Source: Bacillota bacterium (GTDB lineage Bacteria > Bacillota > Clostridia > Christensenellales > SZUA-584). From it: a DNA stretch of 64,000 bases. The notes beneath the pieces were generated by a model. It saw only the letters and a list, made by a program, of their open reading frames with translations. It was not told where the DNA came from and did not search any database. Below are positions 5,575-59,614 of this stretch, piece after piece. Where the stretch lies: positions 69,412-133,411 of the forward strand of contig JAEWRI010000023.1 in assembly GCA_023460085.1 (NCBI GenBank), given 5' to 3'. Made by a program: the position numbers and the translations under genes. The first letter of the stretch is position 1. Each line of letters begins with the position of its first letter.

Positions 5575-6230
5575 TCATCGTGGGCGGCGGCAAGGTGGGC
5601 TACTATCTCGCCAAAACGCTGGCGCCGGAGAAGCATCGGATTATGCTGATTGAGGAAGACTGTCAATTGTGTGAGAAGATCGCCTGCGAGCTTATTGACC
5701 TTGGCGTCGGACTGATTCATGGTGACGGTACGGACATCAAGTATCTTAAGGACGCGGAAATCGAAAAAGCGGATTTGCTGATTGCGGTGACCGGGCACGA
5801 TCAGAACAACCTTGTTGCATGCCAGCTGGCTAAGAACTATTTTGGTGTGGCGCGGACCATCGCCCGCGTGAACAATCCGAAAAATATTAACGTGTTTAAG
5901 CGATTGGGCGTGGACTCGACCGTCAGCAGCACCGCGCATATTGCGGACATCATTGAGCAGGAAGTCGACTGGGCAGGCATCAACCGCATGCTTGCGGAAA
6001 GAGTCGGGGATGTGCGGATCAGAGAATTTGCGGTGGCGGAAGCGTCATTATCCGTGGGGAAAAGGGTTGAGGCTTTGAGTATGCCAAAAGGTACGATATT
6101 AATCTCCGTGGTACGTGATAAGGAAGCAATTATACCGAACGGCCAGACAAAGATATTCGCTGGAGATATCGTGGTGGCCTTGACGAACGAAGGCAATATG
6201 CCCAAGGTGGCGTCCTATTTCCTGGGTTAA
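5565..6230 (+). CDS. trkA: Trk/Ktr potassium uptake regulatory subunit (second copy)
   Basis: MYIIIVGGGKVGYYLA. A paralog of the preceding gene, overlapping its end by 10 nt. Confidence 0.85.
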   Translation: MYIIIVGGGKVGYYLAKTLAPEKHRIMLIEEDCQLCEKIACELIDLGVGLIHGDGTDIKYLKDAEIEKADLLIAVTGHDQNNLVACQLAKNYFGVARTIARVNNPKNINVFKRLGVDSTVSSTAHIADIIEQEVDWAGINRMLAERVGDVRIREFAVAEASLSVGKRVEALSMPKGTILISVVRDKEAIIPNGQTKIFAGDIVVALTNEGNMPKVASYFLG

Positions 6231-6241
6231 CGGGGGCTGAA

Positions 6242-6343
6242 ATGAAGAAGGTTTTTGGCTATGTTTCAGGCGTAATTGCGGAAATCATATTCGCCGGGGT
6301 GCTGATACTCATTGGGTTTCTGATTTCTCTGCTGGCTTTGTGA
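6242..6343 (+). CDS. 33-aa hydrophobic micro-protein (hypothetical)
   Basis: MKKVFGYVSGVIAEIIFAGVLILIGFLISLLAL has one predicted TM helix. It fills the trkA-trkH gap exactly. Not in the ORF track because it is under 60 aa. Confidence 0.3.
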   Translation: MKKVFGYVSGVIAEIIFAGVLILIGFLISLLAL

Positions 6344-6349
6344 GGGGTT

Positions 6350-7873
6350 ATGATAGAAAAGCATGTGAGCCGATTGTACCCGATCTGCTATTATATTGGT
6401 ATTGTCATTATCGGGCTGGGCGCAATACAATACATCCCGATTCTGGTCTCGGCAGTATATGCTGAATGGGAAATACTGTATGATTTTGTTATCAGCAGTT
6501 CCATCGCTTTAATTATCGGCGGTACCATGATGCTGGGTTTTAATAAATACAAGCATCAGCATCTGAGCTGGGGCGAAGGCATGATTGTGGCGGCTGGCGC
6601 ATGGTTTGCAGGCATGCTGCTTTGTGCCCTGCCGTACTATTTAAGCGGCAATTATCTGTCTTACTTGGACTGCTGCTTTGATGTGATGAGCGGTTTTACC
6701 ACCACGGGGCTGGCGCTGATACAAGACATGGATCACATATCAAACGGCATCAACATGTGGCGGCTGCTTCTCACCTTCGTGGGCGGCCAAGGTATGGTCG
6801 TTCTCGCATTGACGTTTTTGATTAAGGGTACCAACGGCGCTTATAAAATGTATGTGGGCGAAGCGAAAGACGAGCGGCTGATGCCGAACGCCATCAGCAC
6901 CGCAAGGCACATTTGGCTGATTAGCCTTATCTATCTGGGCGTCGGCACACTGGTGCAATGGATCGCCGGTATTGTGGCGGGCATGTCTGTTGGCCGGGCG
7001 TTTATTCACGGCCTGTGGATATTCATGTCCGCCTGGAGCACGGGAGGTTTTGCGCCGATGTCGCAAAGCATTCTCTATTACCACAGCGCGTTTTATGAGA
7101 TTGTGACAATGGTGTTCTTTATCATCGGCTCGTTTAACTTCGCGTTGCACTACGCCGTTATGACGGGCAGAAGGGGCGAGCTGCGGCGCAATATTGAGAC
7201 GGTGACTTTTACCATTACGGTCACTGTGCTGACCCTCATCGCCACACTGGGGCTACTGCAGAATGGTATCTATACCGACGTGGTCTCCATGTTCCGCAAA
7301 GGGTTCTATCAGCTCATATCCGGCCATACGACGACTGGCTTTATGACCATCTATGCCAGGCAGTTCTACTTTGAGTGGGGCGATATCGCGCTGTTTGCAA
7401 TCATGATAGCCATGCTTTTCGGCGCAAGCGCCTGTTCCACAGCGGGCGGCTTTAAGGGGTTGCGTATCGGCATCATCGTTAATGCTTTTAAGAAGGATAT
7501 TCACCAGATGGTGCTGCCCGAGTCTGCGATATCCGTTAAAAAGTATCACCATATCAAAGATGTTGTGCTGGAGGATAAGGTGGTGCGCAGCGCATTTCTG
7601 ATTGTGTTTGCATACATCGTGACTTTTACGCTGGGAACGCTGGTGGGAATGCTCTGCGGCTATCCGTTTGCGGAGTCAGCGTTTGAATCCGCTTCTGTCA
7701 CAGGAAATGTGGGACTCAGTATCGGTCTCACTAGTGCCGCCATGCCCGCGGTATTGAAGCTGACCTATATACTGATTATGTGGCTGGCGCGGCTCGAGTT
7801 TATGTCGATATTGGCGCTGGGCGTCTATGTTGCAACGAAGGTGAAGAAAAGATGCGAAAGAAAATTTCTATAA
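6350..7873 (+). CDS. trkH: TrkH/KtrB-family potassium transporter membrane subunit
   Basis: Polytopic protein with repeated pore-loop motifs (SGFTTTGL, SAWSTGGF, SGHTTTGF, SVTGNVGLS). Confidence 0.85.
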   Translation: MIEKHVSRLYPICYYIGIVIIGLGAIQYIPILVSAVYAEWEILYDFVISSSIALIIGGTMMLGFNKYKHQHLSWGEGMIVAAGAWFAGMLLCALPYYLSGNYLSYLDCCFDVMSGFTTTGLALIQDMDHISNGINMWRLLLTFVGGQGMVVLALTFLIKGTNGAYKMYVGEAKDERLMPNAISTARHIWLISLIYLGVGTLVQWIAGIVAGMSVGRAFIHGLWIFMSAWSTGGFAPMSQSILYYHSAFYEIVTMVFFIIGSFNFALHYAVMTGRRGELRRNIETVTFTITVTVLTLIATLGLLQNGIYTDVVSMFRKGFYQLISGHTTTGFMTIYARQFYFEWGDIALFAIMIAMLFGASACSTAGGFKGLRIGIIVNAFKKDIHQMVLPESAISVKKYHHIKDVVLEDKVVRSAFLIVFAYIVTFTLGTLVGMLCGYPFAESAFESASVTGNVGLSIGLTSAAMPAVLKLTYILIMWLARLEFMSILALGVYVATKVKKRCERKFL

Positions 7874-8340
7874 TAATCGCTGTTGTTATCTGCTTCTGCC
7901 CTGCGATGTCTCTGGCAAGCGGTGTGGAAGTGACAAGCAGTGACCTGATCAACAACGCCGGAGACTTTGACGGAAAAGAAATCGTTTATACCGGCGAAGT
8001 CATCGGAGACATTTTATCACGCGGAGAGTATTCATGGATCAATGTCAGTGACGGCAGCAATGCTATCGGCGTATGGGTGCAAACCGATGATATCAGCGCT
8101 ATTGATAGCCTAGGCGGCTATACGACGCACGGAGATACGGTCAGGATCACCGGCGTGTTCAACCGCGCCTGCCCGGTGCATGGCGGCGATATGGATATTC
8201 ATGCTGACAGCATTGAGCTCGTTGAGGAGGGGTACAAAGTAGCGCATTTTACGCCGGCTTGGGAAGTCATAACAGCTCCGATTCTGCTTGCAGGCGCTGC
8301 GGTATGTTTAATGCTTGTTATAAAGAATAAGAAAAGATGA
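7852..8340 (+). CDS. exported protein with C-terminal TM anchor (OB-fold-like, hypothetical)
   Basis: Signal peptide MRKKISIIIAVVICFCPAMSLASG and C-terminal TM ending in KNKKR. Overlaps the trkH end by 22 nt. The OB-fold idea is inference only. Confidence 0.5.
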   Translation: MRKKISIIIAVVICFCPAMSLASGVEVTSSDLINNAGDFDGKEIVYTGEVIGDILSRGEYSWINVSDGSNAIGVWVQTDDISAIDSLGGYTTHGDTVRITGVFNRACPVHGGDMDIHADSIELVEEGYKVAHFTPAWEVITAPILLAGAAVCLMLVIKNKKR

Positions 8341-8455
8341 TGAGATATCAGATGTTGTTTAATTGTTTTTATCTATCCGTATCTGAAGGCAGGACACTTG
8401 AGCTGCGGAATACTGCGTGTGCTGCTTAATAAAGCAGTCCATCGGGTATAGTTCC

Positions 8456-9193
8456 CTATTCAAAATGGCGGCCATATTCCTTATTAAATGCGGCCTGGGC
8501 CTCTGCGGTATCAAAGGTGATATCGACCGCCGGAATATATTCCATCATGTATCCTAAGTCGTATAAATCTGCTTTTATAGATGTACCATCCGAGAAAAAA
8601 ATCGTAAAGGAATAATAATCTTCGCCACGGCTGTAATTCGTTGTAACTGCCAATTTATAAATATCGGATGTATTGTATATCGCCGGGTTGAAAGAAAGAC
8701 TCGTAGATACCGTTATACGGTTATTTATGACATATGCGTAATTGTGTATACCCAGCGCGGTTATCACTAAGCAAATGAACAGGCAAATAGCCGCAATCTG
8801 TTTTACGATATGAGTGCTTTTCTTTGCTCGCTTTATACTTTTTATCCTGATTTCTGGCAACGTCGATACCGCAGTAACCATCACCAAAATTGCCACTACA
8901 GCCATGGGTATTATTATCATCATTTCACTGCTGTCTAATCGAAGGGGATAACCGCCGCCGGGCTTTATAAATAATATATTTTGAATAAAAAAACAGAGAG
9001 CAGTACCGCCGAAAAGAGTAATGAATAACGAACCAAGCATAACCGAAAAGAGTTTGATGTATGACCAGCGTCTGCCATTTGCATTTGGCCTGATTGGGTC
9101 TCGTTTGATTAATCTTGTTGACGATACTAAATAAACCGAAATGCTGATTCCGGCACTCAATAAGAATGAAATGATATAGTAAAACATCGGCAT
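8456..9193 (-). CDS. hypothetical polytopic membrane protein (low-GC orphan)
   Basis: 245-aa ORF with about 4 TM helices plus a C-terminal soluble domain. It sits in a visibly AT-rich block. No family recognised. Confidence 0.5.
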   Translation of the reverse strand: MPMFYYIISFLLSAGISISVYLVSSTRLIKRDPIRPNANGRRWSYIKLFSVMLGSLFITLFGGTALCFFIQNILFIKPGGGYPLRLDSSEMMIIIPMAVVAILVMVTAVSTLPEIRIKSIKRAKKSTHIVKQIAAICLFICLVITALGIHNYAYVINNRITVSTSLSFNPAIYNTSDIYKLAVTTNYSRGEDYYSFTIFFSDGTSIKADLYDLGYMMEYIPAVDITFDTAEAQAAFNKEYGRHFE

Positions 9194-9440
9194 TCCCTTC
9201 TCTTAAGGCAACGCTCAAAAACAGTAACTTATCGCGATCAATGACGCCAATGATACAGTGTTGATTATACACCATGTAAGCGCTGTTCACAAATGAACTG
9301 CCGATGAGAAAGCTTTGTTATCAAACCATAGCGGCAGTAAGGCGGAAAACGGTTGACTATTCGCGCAGAGCAAGCGGATGCTGATGAACGGTATTTATTA
9401 AAGAGTATGAATAGCATTCTGTCCCAATAATTAACAGTAA

Positions 9441-9468
9441 ATAAAAAACCGCCTTGTAAAGCGGTTTT
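9441..9468 (-). terminator. intrinsic terminator ending the tRNA transcription unit
   Basis: AAAACCGC/GCGGTTTT stem with a T-run on the minus strand, directly after tRNA-Pro. Confidence 0.7.
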
Positions 9469-9473
9469 ATTTA

Positions 9474-9551
<78 letters not shown>

Positions 9552-9587
9552 AAAACTTACCCCGAAGAGAGACTTCGGGGTAAAAAA

Positions 9588-9751: not shown

Positions 9752-10813
9752 TGTAGGACTACAATACATATTGGACACTGAACCTTGAAAATAGAAGATG
9801 CAGGAACGGACTCGTGGGGTATTGTTGAGTTGCAAGACAAAACATTACCGAAAGGAGCCATTGCTGCACCATGAATAACGTAACACAAGACATGAAGTAT
9901 CGGCAATCCCTTGTTTTATTCGCTCACAAATATGGCGTTTCACGCGCCAGCCGTAAGTATAACAAAGCCCGTTCCACAATCTATTTCTGGTTATCAAGGT
10001 ACAATGGCACAATCGAATCATTAGCCTGCCAGTCGCGAAGGCCGCACTCCCACCCTGCGCAGCACACCGAGAACGAGCTTGACCTTCTGCGCCGCATGCG
10101 GCGCAGAAACCCTGACTTAGGCTTATGTGAGCTGTGGTGTCGGTTGCGCGAAAGAGGTTACAGCCGCACCATTGTTAGCATGTATCGTGCCCTAAGGCGT
10201 CTAGGGCTGCAGCCTGAGCCTACTCATAAGCCTAAGTATATCCCGAAACCTTATGAGCACATGCTATACCCTGGTCAACGCGTTCAAATCGATGTCAAAT
10301 ATGTTCCTTCGGCCTGTCTGGTTGGTGCCGCAAAAGGGCAGCGTTTTTATCAGTATACCGCTATTGATGAGTTCTCACGGTTGCGCTATGTGGAAGCCTT
10401 TAATGAACAAAGCACCTACTCGTCAACCACTTTTCTCAAGAATGCTGTCAGGTTCTTCAGGTTCCCGATACTGTGTGTACAGACCGATAACGGCTTTGAA
10501 TTCACTAACCGGTTCGCTGCAACCAAACGCGACCTCCCTACACTGTTTGAATCCACTGCTGCCTGTCTGGGCATCCGTCACAAGCTCATCCGGCCGTACA
10601 CGCCACGGCATAACGGCAAGGTGGAGCGCAGCCATCGAGAGGATCAGAAGCGCTTCTATTCCAAACGCACCTTCTACTCTTTTGCAGACTTCAAGCTGCA
10701 GCTTGAAGTCTATCGATACCGTTCCAACAAGATTCCCATGCGTCCACTCGGTTGGCGTTCACCAGTCGATTATCTGCGCTCCTATACTGTCCAACATGTT
10801 TGACAAACCTACA
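9752..10813 (+). mobile_element. IS481-family insertion sequence (about 1.06 kb, single transposase)
   Basis: Imperfect terminal inverted repeats of about 30 bp: TGTAGGACTACAATACATATTGGACAC versus the reverse complement TGTAGGTTTGTCAAACATGTTGGACAG. A single DDE ORF lies inside. Confidence 0.8.
9871..10803 (+). CDS. IS481-family DDE transposase (rve integrase core)
   Basis: N-terminal HTH. Catalytic core motifs are QIDVKYV, YQYTAIDEFSRL, VQTDNGFEF and RPYTPRHNGKVERSHR. Confidence 0.85.
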   Translation: MNNVTQDMKYRQSLVLFAHKYGVSRASRKYNKARSTIYFWLSRYNGTIESLACQSRRPHSHPAQHTENELDLLRRMRRRNPDLGLCELWCRLRERGYSRTIVSMYRALRRLGLQPEPTHKPKYIPKPYEHMLYPGQRVQIDVKYVPSACLVGAAKGQRFYQYTAIDEFSRLRYVEAFNEQSTYSSTTFLKNAVRFFRFPILCVQTDNGFEFTNRFAATKRDLPTLFESTAACLGIRHKLIRPYTPRHNGKVERSHREDQKRFYSKRTFYSFADFKLQLEVYRYRSNKIPMRPLGWRSPVDYLRSYTVQHV

Positions 10814-57084: not shown

Positions 57085-57109
57085 GCTGGAACGGCCGCAT
57101 CAGTACCGC

Positions 57110-57991
57110 TTATATTCCTATAAAAGGATTGTTAAATCCAGATTCTGATAAAACGTCTTGTGTTATATCCATCATTTTTTCAACTCGTTGATATTTGATG
57201 ATCGTTTTGCTTACTATTCTTTGTATCAGAATTACGTCTTCAAATCTAATCTTCTTGGTTTTCCCTGAATGAACGTATTCAGATCTAAGAGAATAAAAAT
57301 CCCTTATTTTTTTATAATAATCTTTATAGTCCATAATGTTGCTACTTAAAAAAATTGCAGTGTTTCTTGATACTCTATAGCTGATCTCATTTTTTGAGTC
57401 ATTGCTAAAAAGCATTTCCAATACCGTAATGAGTAATACAATTCTAACTCCATACTCTAGTGAATCAAATGATTGATTATAGATAGAGACTGCTTCTTTT
57501 AATTTTTGTGATGATTTAGTTAAATCAAATATATTAATAAACTCCTGAAATTCGTCTATATCTCCTTCCTCTAAAGAAACTGAATTTTGAGTTCCATGCC
57601 TAGGTTGAGAAGTCATCACTTGACCAGTACAAGTGGTGATTTTGTTGTCACTACAAAATAGAAACATCTCATTAATATAAATATCGGCGGCAGTAAATAA
57701 TCTAATCTTTTGAATTAGATCTAAAGCATACTGATAGGTCAAATTACTAAATTCCAAATAAGTTTGCTCCGTATTACCAAATTTCAAAACTAAAAATTTC
57801 GGTTCTTCTATTTCGGCAGCAACTGAATTTAAAAAATCTTTAAAAGAGTACACATAATTTTCACTTTTATCAAATAACGCCTCTAGCATATATCGGTCCA
57901 ACAATTCAAACCTAACGTTTTCTTCTAATTTTAACTTTGTTAAACGCGAATGCCCATTATTCACGGGTATTAAAAAAAATTGCTTATACAT
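57110..57991 (-). CDS. hypothetical protein with C-terminal HEPN-like (Rx4H) domain, in AT-rich islet
   Basis: The only long ORF in the AT-rich block. RSEYVH is encoded at 57269..57286. The ATG at 57991 follows an extended -10 (TGgTAAAAT). The ORF could extend to a GTG at 58105. Confidence 0.6.
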   Translation of the reverse strand: MYKQFFLIPVNNGHSRLTKLKLEENVRFELLDRYMLEALFDKSENYVYSFKDFLNSVAAEIEEPKFLVLKFGNTEQTYLEFSNLTYQYALDLIQKIRLFTAADIYINEMFLFCSDNKITTCTGQVMTSQPRHGTQNSVSLEEGDIDEFQEFINIFDLTKSSQKLKEAVSIYNQSFDSLEYGVRIVLLITVLEMLFSNDSKNEISYRVSRNTAIFLSSNIMDYKDYYKKIRDFYSLRSEYVHSGKTKKIRFEDVILIQRIVSKTIIKYQRVEKMMDITQDVLSESGFNNPFIGI

Positions 57992-58232
57992 CCTATCTAC
58001 TCTCTTTTTTACTATTTTACCATTCCACAGTGAATGGATTAAAGATAACTTTAATGTAAACAAATTAGTTATATAAAGGAATGACGCAAAAGTCGTCCAC
58101 TTCACTTAAATTCCCAACTACACATCCCGCTGTGCCTCTTCGAGAGACCCGGCTGGATAATGCCGCTCCCATAATTCCGGGGTGCTGAACCATCGAATGG
58201 TTATGCTTCGCGCACGGTTTTTTGCGTGATGT

Positions 58233-59471
58233 TTACGATATACTTCTCCACATTCTGTTCGCCGCGGTGAATCTCAACCTCGCATTCATCCCCGCTGTAC
58301 ACCCAAAAAAAGCCGAAGGTCTGGTCGCGGTGATGCTGACCAAGCTGATATCCGGGCCAATCGATATGTCAGCATCGGTATCAAGTATATCCAATATAGT
58401 GGGCAAATCGATAAGCCCTGTATTAACGGGGGGACGTATGTTTTGATAGCTTTGAAAAATGACCGACACATAGTCGTAACTTCGGCGTGAATAAAACGAG
58501 AGCGTTGTGTTGGGTTCAGGCAGCAGGCCCGGCGCATCCTGAAATACCAAACAGAAATAGGATGGCTCACCCGACAGCAGCGTGTCTGAACCTTCAAACT
58601 TGACGTAAAAACCGACGAGCTCCGCGTTGCCGCATTGTTCCAAGGTATATGCAAGCGCGTCGTCGTATGCCTGTGCAAGTGTCTCCGGCTGTTCCATATC
58701 GGCCATCTCGGTTCTTTGTGATTGAATAATTATGATGAAAATCAGTATTATGGTAAAGATTGCCCCTGCCGCAATCCATATCCCGGTTTTCACCTTGTTT
58801 GACACGGCGGAAGGTTCTTTATCTTCTTCTGGCAAGGTGTCCTCCGGCTCGTCCGTGGTTTTAAAATTCAAACAATAAACGGACAGCAGAGATAACAGCA
58901 AATTAAGGCCGACGAAGATTAATAGCGTCAGTAAAATGAATCCGCCTCCCAATGCAAAGCCGAGACGAAACAATAAGTTGAGTACAATAAATAAAGTAAT
59001 TCTTACAGGATAGGAGTTGGATAATGGTACTGGCAAGAGATAGTACCCTCGGCCATTCCCTTCTTCGATCAAATCGATCAGCCGTTCTCTGCGAGGAATA
59101 AAAACGTATCTTAAATACACGGAAAACGATGGACGGTCGCTTTTTGATGCCCTTTCGCACATAGCATCCGATACAAAATCAGAATCCAGCTTCACAAAAC
59201 GTGCAAAAAAGTAGCGAATCGGCGCGACGACAACATACAGCGCCGGTAATACATAAAGCGGCACCAGGCTCATGCGCAATTCCTGAACAAAGTACAAACT
59301 GGCAGCAGCCAAAGCACCCAGAAGCCAGAAAAGCTTATAGGGCGTGGTTTTAAGGACGGCGTATCGTTCCCCGGTTTTTTCGATAATGGGCTTGAGCGAC
59401 AGCGACCTGCCGAATCCCTGACGGTACACATGAGCCCGGTATGTGCTGAAGCTGGGGCGGTCCTTCTTCAT
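58233..59471 (-). CDS. hypothetical polytopic membrane protein with internal N-terminal duplication
   Basis: 412-aa ORF. The (K/S)DRPSFS(T/V)Y module plus 2 TM occurs twice, followed by a fifth TM and a soluble C-terminal domain of about 150 aa. The 3' end is uncertain (see findings). Confidence 0.55.
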   Translation of the reverse strand: MKKDRPSFSTYRAHVYRQGFGRSLSLKPIIEKTGERYAVLKTTPYKLFWLLGALAAASLYFVQELRMSLVPLYVLPALYVVVAPIRYFFARFVKLDSDFVSDAMCERASKSDRPSFSVYLRYVFIPRRERLIDLIEEGNGRGYYLLPVPLSNSYPVRITLFIVLNLLFRLGFALGGGFILLTLLIFVGLNLLLSLLSVYCLNFKTTDEPEDTLPEEDKEPSAVSNKVKTGIWIAAGAIFTIILIFIIIIQSQRTEMADMEQPETLAQAYDDALAYTLEQCGNAELVGFYVKFEGSDTLLSGEPSYFCLVFQDAPGLLPEPNTTLSFYSRRSYDYVSVIFQSYQNIRPPVNTGLIDLPTILDILDTDADISIGPDISLVSITATRPSAFFGCTAGMNARLRFTAANRMWRSIS

Positions 59472-59523
59472 GCTTGCCTCCGCGCTTATATTTATGTAAT
59501 TATATTATATATTGGCATTAATG

Positions 59524-59560
59524 TATACAACAAAGCGGCAGGGGTAACCGCCCTGCCGCT
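59524..59560 (-). terminator. intrinsic terminator after the cupin gene
   Basis: 10-bp stem AGCGGCAGGG/CCCTGCCGCT followed by TTGTTGTAT on the minus strand. Confidence 0.65.
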
Positions 59561-59614
59561 CTGGTTTCAGAGATCTATCGAGTGCATATCTGTCTTTTCA
59601 GCCAAAGTTCCGCC

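Follow-up and report, generated by a model that had tools for sequence, protein, structure and literature searches.

An AT-rich islet of about 1 kb, with a single long open reading frame (ORF), lies beside ywbE in a 64,000-nucleotide stretch of contig JAEWRI010000023.1 from a Bacillota bacterium (assembly GCA_023460085.1, forward-strand positions 69,412 to 133,411), referred to here as the window. What does this lone gene encode, how did it come to lie there, and does its product act with a partner? An original prediction, made from the DNA letters without database searches, proposed a horizontally acquired, HEPN-like gene for defence or toxicity. On balance we favour a stand-alone, horizontally acquired protein of the HEPN superfamily, predicted to be an RNase, with a fast-evolving N-terminal domain and probably acting as an effector in abortive infection or a similar conflict. 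A role in defence or as a toxin is suggested by genomic context.

The islet and its single gene

The islet (57100..58100, no strand assigned) lies between a membrane-protein gene and the 3' end of ywbE, which encodes a DUF2196 protein, and has a GC content of 29%. In 300-bp windows its GC fraction was 0.27-0.33, compared with 0.55-0.68 in the flanks. The edges were sharp in 50-bp windows, with a fall from 0.60 to 0.32 at about 57100 and a rise from 0.28 to 0.50 at about 58100. No other 986-bp stretch of the 64-kb window has so low a GC (z = -5.2); the remaining stretches of that length have a mean of 0.575 (standard deviation 0.054) and a minimum of 0.392. The ORF has a GC fraction of 0.293 and a third-codon-position value (GC3) of 0.255, whereas GC3 in the flanking genes (RecD2, ABC-F, DUF2196, cupin and DUF438/hemerythrin/PAS) is 0.70-0.85. 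The abrupt drop beyond ywbE, previously judged by eye, was thus reproduced in windowed GC profiles, and the islet does contain exactly one long ORF.

The ORF occupies 57110..57991 on the minus strand and encodes 293 amino acids plus a stop, a product identical to P0001. Mechanical ORF calling had begun at a GTG codon (58105-57110, 331 aa). We dropped this start for the ATG at 57991 because homologs, including P0002 and P0044, align from the ATG; the N-terminal MYKQFFLIPVN, for example, aligns with MDKPYFLVPIN of P0002.

A large family with an invariant R-x4-H motif

A word-indexed search of 5.8 billion proteins returned two relatives of the query protein, at 43% and 28% identity. A profile of the three sequences retrieved 43 unnamed proteins of about 350 aa without a Pfam domain, and an exhaustive search found 2,508 representatives at 50% identity with E ≤ 1e-3 (393 at E ≤ 1e-10), mostly of 290-370 aa. 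A further large-database search with a 126-sequence profile found only 20 unnamed proteins, and a metagenome scan for the 290-aa subfamily gave a single 1-kb contig without context. When the 126 members were scanned against NCBIfam and PADLOC, only scattered single chance matches were obtained, and no ApeA model was among the PADLOC matches. The family is therefore large and covered by no curated model in Pfam, NCBIfam or PADLOC. The only library match of the query was to phrog_28161 of PHROGs, a group whose function is unknown (E 1.7e-8). Despite this match a phage origin is unsupported, because no relative of the family was found in 50,697 phage records (tblastn) or in 2.9 million viral contigs.

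Residue conservation was counted in 126 divergent family representatives with a mean column identity of 15%. The putative catalytic motif R236-S-E-Y-V-H241 (57269..57286, minus strand) has its R and H in 126/126 members and S237 in 119/126; the nearby Y233 is likewise present in all 126. The R-x4-H was also found in all 41 rows of an alignment of closer homologs. E192 (codon 57416..57418, minus strand), the acidic residue of an L-E-x-L-F segment in predicted HEPN helix 2, is E in 123 members and D in the other 3, and R261 is kept in 119 of the 126. As every one of these conserved residues is retained in the query, the protein looks functional. By chance, 0.13 occurrences of R-x4-H would be expected in a sequence of this composition (13 R and 3 H in 293 aa), and the motif alone is weak evidence; its weight comes from the invariance of R and H across the family. 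The C-terminal peptide and motif quoted in the original prediction (57286-57269) were read correctly, and the conservation of R and H that it proposed as a check was observed throughout.

Conservation is uneven along the protein, with mean pairwise identity of 17% over the N-terminal 90 residues and 30% over the C-terminal domain. A subfamily of about 290 aa (P0002, P0044, P0056 and P0089) shares the N-terminal domain as well.

Predicted structure

A full-length AlphaFold2 model built from the 43-sequence alignment had a predicted local distance difference test score (pLDDT) of 77.9 and a predicted template modelling score of 0.80. It consists of two domains joined by a linker in which residues 123-130 have pLDDT below 50. 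The N-terminal domain (aa 1-121; 57629..57991, minus strand; pLDDT 60-87) is predicted to be mixed alpha/beta, with strands (E) and helices (H) in the order E2-10, H12-19, E26-32, H33-40, H50-60, E65-72, H78-100 and E111-121. Neither a family match nor a fold match was found for it, and we regard it as a putative, fast-evolving sensor or regulatory domain.

The C-terminal domain (aa 141-293; 57113..57571, minus strand) is predicted to be all-helical and HEPN-like, with pLDDT of 84-97, and contains the region of the ApeA profile match described below. When it was modelled alone (aa 138-293), the same helices were obtained at pLDDT 85.3. These are a helix at 142-154, H1 at 162-176, H2 at 180-195 (with E192), an insert at 203-215, H3 at 219-242, a loop at 243-249 and H4 at 250-283. 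The R-x4-H lies at the end of the predicted helix 219-242, before the loop and the long final helix (250-274/283). The published definition of the superfamily describes a core of four helices running up and down, often with an insert between H2 and H3, and a conserved acidic residue in H2 (PMC3710099), and places Rx4-6H at the C-terminal end of helix 3, running into the H3-H4 loop (PMC3710099, section 7). The predicted helix order and the place of the motif agree with this definition: an R-x4-6-H motif is present and, on the predicted structure, it lies at the end of H3 and the H3-H4 loop, with an acidic residue in H2. The original prediction had assigned the motif to the beginning of the final helix, a slight misplacement.

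Sequence links to known HEPN families

When the 126-sequence profile was compared with all PDB sequences, one meaningful match was obtained, to the HEPN region of Ec4ApeA (9hxm, E 1.1e-5). Profile positions 139-230 align with ApeA 292-383 (...rFllLmisLEaL versus RFTAYWSALESL), so that the E192 position falls at ALESL of Ec4ApeA, and positions 256-307 align with ApeA 493-547 (LYdkRSkyVH versus LYLLRNTIVH); the two stretches are collinear. The corresponding arginine is catalytic in ApeA, where R502A (Ec2ApeA) and R521A (Ec1ApeA) abolish defence. Searching PDB sequences with the query protein by itself returned no useful match.

Pfam matches among the 126 members point the same way. At E < 0.01, HEPN_RiboL-PSP was matched by 7/126 (best E 2.1e-6) and HEPN_Apea by 3/126, and no other family was matched by more than two members. 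In three members inspected singly, the HEPN_RiboL-PSP match covers the C-terminal half of the Pfam profile, including the E and the R-x4-H. Taken together, these results make membership of the HEPN superfamily likely, and we hold it with good confidence.

Horizontal acquisition

The flanking ABC-F protein places the host among uncultured, Christensenellaceae-like Bacillota. Judged by ABC-F identity, the nearest genomes are those of loci L006-L008 (81%), followed by L009-L011 (about 71%). In L007, tblastn synteny gave the order cupin (9254-9583), a 58-bp spacer (read directly), DUF2196 (9838-9653) and then ABC-F; the cupin-DUF2196 interval holds neither the HEPN gene nor the membrane-protein gene. 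The cupin gene and ywbE are thus contiguous without the islet in a relative, as the original prediction had proposed to look for. The HEPN gene was not found in L006 or L008 either (tblastn synteny). In ten loci that carry homologs of the gene, overall GC is 0.24-0.39, in line with the 0.29 of the islet. As composition, empty site and donor-like GC concur, we conclude that the islet is a recent horizontal acquisition from a low-GC donor, which upholds the earlier claim.

Atypical composition and an empty orthologous site are therefore both present; integration machinery and scars were not found. The left junction coincides with the stop codon of the ORF, 25 bp from the convergent ywbE stop. 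One repeat, D5 (57107-57123 / 59483-59499; 17 nt, 82% identity), flanks the membrane-protein and HEPN genes and was considered as a target-site duplication. We rejected it because it lies in the promoter/leader of the membrane-protein gene, is absent from the empty site in L007, and because chance alone should produce exact matches of 10 nt within 3 kb.

The order of the surrounding genes itself varies. Close relatives differ, with cupin-ABC-F-DUF2196 in L006 (1-2365) and cupin-DUF2196-ABC-F in L007 (9254-11800), and about 4.6 kb between ABC-F and RecD2 in L007 is missing from the window. The cupin/DUF2196/ABC-F neighbourhood rearranges often. Elsewhere in the window, a second and milder low-GC patch (about 0.39) at 8300-9300 holds a 245-aa multi-pass membrane protein (ORF 8456-9193, minus strand), adjoined by a 310-aa ORF (9871-10803, plus strand) that by eye resembles a DDE/rve-type insertion-sequence transposase. 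This patch may be another acquired or mobile segment.

Neighbourhoods of homologs

Mobile-element or defence genes were found within 7 kb of the homolog in 10/10 loci, a count made without a background frequency. One locus has a serine recombinase, ParB, an AEP primase-helicase, Fic and nSTAND; another has ArdC, PIN_12, a Y-family polymerase and a serine recombinase. DUF3800, SymE and a tyrosine integrase occur together in a third, and two tyrosine integrases with MobL in a fourth. The remaining contexts are a helix-turn-helix gene with a large AAA_21 ATPase, AAA_14/DUF4143, a D12 methylase with a SEC-C protein, a type I/IIG restriction-modification system, and two loci of which one (of L062 and L063) carries GmrSD, Fic and TnpV and the other an integrase and MobA.

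In an all-against-all comparison of two genes on each side, no partner gene was conserved between the ten loci, and only generic ABC-ATPase similarity was seen. From the mobile and defence contexts, the absence of a shared neighbour and the lack of phage or viral relatives, we therefore conclude that members of the family behave as solitary cargo genes, carried by integrative or mobilisable elements and by defence islands.

Some homologs show local associations of their own. In two different element backgrounds, the gene after homolog P0205 encodes the same unannotated 690-aa protein (L062 8197-10269 and L063 7491-9563). This subfamily may include a partner gene, of which the window shows no counterpart. 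In L055, within a conjugative-element context, a PIN_12 gene (5776-6888) ends 19 bp before the HEPN-family gene (6907-7974) on the same strand, and the pair may form a two-nuclease operon.

Expression signals and flanking genes

An extended -10-like element, TGgTAAAAT (58014..58022, minus strand), was read directly, 22 nt ahead of the start codon. It is no more than a match to the consensus, lies inside the islet upstream of the ATG as previously noted, and is not listed by the sigma-70 promoter scan because it has no good -35. A putative Shine-Dalgarno sequence, GAGAG (58000..58004, minus strand), was read in the same way 8 nt before the ATG. At the other end of the gene, a GC-rich spacer of 25 bp (57085..57109, no strand assigned) separates the convergent stops of the ORF and ywbE/DUF2196 and forms the left islet junction. 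The terminator scan found no terminator-like hairpin between the two genes on either strand. Mutual antisense read-through of the two transcripts is therefore possible, and would be specific to this genome.

The upstream gene encodes a 412-aa membrane protein (58233..59471, minus strand) with no Pfam family, a GC of 0.475 and a GC3 of 0.53. A strong promoter-like site of its own (TATACA-17-TATAAT) comes after a hairpin at 59531-59563 (a 13-bp perfect stem, then TTTGTTGT) that directly follows the cupin gene. The hairpin looks like the terminator of the DUF1858-DUF438-cupin operon, separating that operon from the membrane-protein gene and the islet.

A homolog of the membrane protein was found in L007 (16524-17780). 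It is 48% identical, compared with 80-87% for L007 housekeeping genes, is apparently split into two ORFs, and adjoins RecD2 several kilobases away with no HEPN gene nearby. As its GC is equal (0.47), the low GC of the membrane-protein gene is a property of the gene family. With this homolog placed elsewhere without a HEPN gene, and no relative in any of the ten HEPN-family homolog loci, the membrane-protein gene is native to the lineage, fast-evolving and variable in position, and is not an obligate partner of the ORF. The original prediction had left open whether the ORF is a single-gene system or works with this neighbour; both comparisons favour the former and disfavour the latter. It had also claimed that no MNT-type antitoxin is adjacent, which is correct, the neighbours being the convergent DUF2196 gene and the membrane-protein gene.

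Alternative explanations

Several results weigh against the reading of this ORF as an acquired HEPN effector. The query protein matched nothing in Pfam, PADLOC or NCBIfam even at E ≤ 1-10. Each ApeA-aligned stretch is weak when taken alone (independent E-values of 0.1 and 2.2), and the 43-sequence profile does not reach ApeA in the PDB sequences and returns noise only, so the relationship to ApeA is remote. The three members inspected singly score 14.7-17.3 bits against HEPN_RiboL-PSP, for which the gathering cutoff is 28.4, and the match with the best E-value (2.1e-6) is not among these scores. Foldseek gave no significant match, with E at least 0.18 for the full-length model and at least 0.8 for the domain model; the best-superposing matches of the latter were HEPN toxins (8xdj/8yuf/8xeh and 4nqf), at template modelling scores of 0.29-0.42 that are not statistically significant. 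The locus has no recombinase and no convincing flanking repeat or att-like scar (no tRNA scan was made), and the tally of mobile neighbours lacks a background. The HEPN-like character originally claimed is thus upheld by sequence, namely the invariant R, H and Y233, the always acidic position 192, the ApeA profile match and the sub-threshold Pfam matches, and by the predicted secondary-structure topology, and not by curated models for the query or by Foldseek. The lack of a significant fold match and of a curated model for the query, together with links to ApeA and RiboL-PSP that are remote or below threshold, could also be expected if the HEPN label were wrong and this were another helical protein sharing an R...H pair, such as an RNA- or nucleotide-binding regulator or an enzyme other than an RNase. 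We consider that rather improbable, given that an invariant R-x4-H, a small or polar residue after the R and an invariant acidic residue one helix-hairpin earlier make up the HEPN active-site pattern, that the sole match at E below 0.2 in three PDB sequence searches is a HEPN protein, and that the only recurrent Pfam matches are HEPN families. Scarcely credible is an assembly artefact in which a low-GC fragment of another organism was chimerically joined into the contig. The source is a metagenome assembly, the composition changes abruptly, and the islet has no flanking mobility genes or repeats. Against this, the same protein was found in the same context on four contigs from ENA, NCBI and Logan assemblies (three of 0.2-1 Mb; the assemblies are perhaps not independent), the junctions fall at a stop codon and an intergenic region with all flanking genes intact, and the insert is a complete promoter-plus-ORF unit with every family-invariant residue.

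The remaining alternatives keep the HEPN assignment and change what the protein works with. It could be the toxin of a toxin-antitoxin or addiction module with an unrecognised antitoxin, for example a small or antisense RNA, antisense read-through from ywbE or a small ORF, in which case it would stabilise a mobile element and not act as an anti-phage sensor-effector. Partners often neutralise HEPN toxins (MNT in HepT/MntA, RNA in AbiF), integrative or mobilisable elements carry the homologs, and no terminator-like site separates the convergent ORF and ywbE. Still, neither an MNT gene nor any other conserved neighbour was found in the window or the ten homolog loci. The window has no ToxI/AbiF-type tandem repeats and no Rfam family, and the 241-nt region upstream of the ORF folds no better than shuffled sequence (z = -1.5). 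An RNA antitoxin was rejected on these three results. The juxtaposition with ywbE is unique to this genome and is therefore not the family's control mechanism. We regard a toxin-antitoxin module as unlikely. A two-gene system, in which the 412-aa membrane protein serves for instance as a sensor or effector coupled to the RNase, appears very unlikely. The two genes share a strand, the 241 bp that separate them contain no terminator-like site, the membrane-protein gene has below-average GC and no Pfam domain, and both are missing between cupin and ywbE in L007. These points are countered by the L007 homolog beside RecD2, which has equal GC and no accompanying HEPN gene, by the difference in GC3 (0.53 versus 0.26 for the ORF), by a separate promoter-like element for each gene, and by the absence of a membrane-protein relative from every homolog locus.

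Proposed mechanism and significance

The acquisition, family membership, residue conservation, predicted topology, absence of a partner gene and homolog context were established in this analysis. By analogy with ApeA, HepS and DARNA, we infer the RNase activity, dimerisation, autoinhibition, trigger, RNA target and phage phenotype that a single-gene effector of this kind would have. The islet itself is best read as a minimal cassette of about 100 bp of AT-rich promoter/leader and one gene, acquired from a low-GC donor and lying between the membrane-protein gene and ywbE. The protein would be produced constitutively from its own promoter and would dimerise through its HEPN domains, two R-x4-H motifs together making up one composite RNase site that needs no metal. 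The N-terminal domain, a higher-order assembly or both may keep it inactive until it is switched on by a trigger that arises from infection or stress and stems from a phage or mobile element. The active protein would then cleave cellular RNA, most likely tRNA anticodon loops, and growth would stop, resulting in abortive infection or competition between mobile elements.

More tentatively, the family could be an uncatalogued, widespread type of single-protein anti-phage or anti-mobile-element system, in which a compact HEPN RNase, remotely related to ApeA, is controlled by a rapidly diversifying sensor of about 120 aa. In the present genome the gene would have moved as a bare 1-kb promoter-plus-gene cassette, without recombinase or repeats, out of a low-GC donor and into a high-GC genome. 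If the family is a defence system, it would add a new sensor module to the solo HEPN set and mark genes missed by annotation pipelines that use these libraries. If it is not, it is one more uncharacterised member of a very diverse superfamily. Another HEPN family in defence islands would not surprise a specialist. The family is nevertheless a worthwhile target for experiments: it is large, missing from Pfam, NCBIfam and PADLOC, and built compactly of two domains, and the empty site allows a clean comparison. Members of 290-370 aa are also easy to work with. The locus is, besides, a clean natural case in which a minimal defence-type cassette has crossed a GC difference of about 30 percentage points while a relative keeps the empty site.

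Comparison with known systems

Partner-less HEPN proteins with a defence function have precedents in ApeA, HepS and DARNA, and the present protein would work most like one of these. Such solo RNases are informative models of infection sensing and cell killing or arrest combined in one protein. In the families studied so far the triggers differ: deoxydinucleotides, a phage tail-tip protein, and single-stranded DNA (ssDNA) presented by single-stranded DNA-binding protein.

Paired and RNA-controlled HEPN systems resemble the present protein less. HepT of HepT/MntA uses the same R-x4-H chemistry; the protein described here is twice as long, has an extra domain and has no MNT gene adjacent, and identity with that pair was rejected. 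Identity as AbiD/AbiF (Abi_2) was likewise rejected, as Abi_2 was absent among the matches of the query and the 126 members and no tandem RNA repeats, Rfam match or notable leader fold were found. RiboL-PSP-HEPN (PF18735), described as distantly related to AbiD/AbiF (Anantharaman et al. 2013), is the Pfam family most often matched by the family of this protein. Its members are typically fused to, or in an operon with, an L-PSP endoRNase or ParB; the protein described here has no such fusion, no L-PSP protein lies beside the ORF, and ParB occurs in one homolog locus only, as part of a mobile element. We did not assign the protein to RiboL-PSP-HEPN, since the query has no match and the three inspected members fall below the gathering threshold of 28.4 bits.

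Among the solo systems, ApeA (HEPN_Apea, PF18739; 9HXM and related PDB entries) resembles this protein in needing no partner gene and in having its HEPN core at the C-terminal end, and its homologs also occur in restriction-modification and defence contexts. The two differ in size and architecture. ApeA has about 600 aa in N-terminal, Mid and split-HEPN domains, with about 110 extra residues between the two profile-aligned stretches, and forms decamers or dodecamers, whereas this protein has 293 aa and an unrelated alpha/beta N-terminal domain of about 120 aa. Length, domain architecture and the Pfam HEPN_Apea and PADLOC models all speak against identity as ApeA, which was rejected. ApeA is an autoinhibited oligomer that is activated by a ligand and acts as a tRNA anticodon nuclease, and this is the likely working model for the present protein. 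Cryo-EM defined a conserved ligand pocket and a decameric, doughnut-like assembly in ApeA.

HepS (HEPN Solo, from the Gifsy-1 prophage) is a single HEPN protein without an antitoxin and the closest functional precedent for a lone HEPN gene. It is constitutively produced and inactive as an oligomer, and a phage protein activates it to cleave tRNA anticodons. Unlike the protein described here, HepS is a bare HEPN domain (R100-H105, homologs below 250 aa), prophage-encoded and without an extra N-terminal domain, and PDB sequence searches at E ≤ 10 gave no similarity to HepS entries. Like the present protein, DARNA (PD-T7-3) combines a HEPN domain with one further domain in a single protein; DARNA is an abortive-infection tRNase, and its second domain is a non-catalytic sensor. 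Its domain order is reversed, with an N-terminal HEPN and a C-terminal Pds5-like ssDNA-binding domain in a 456-aa protein that forms a dodecamer, and no sequence similarity to it was detected. Within the HEPN superfamily, the islet gene is best described as an uncurated variant at the family level, set apart by its N-terminal domain.

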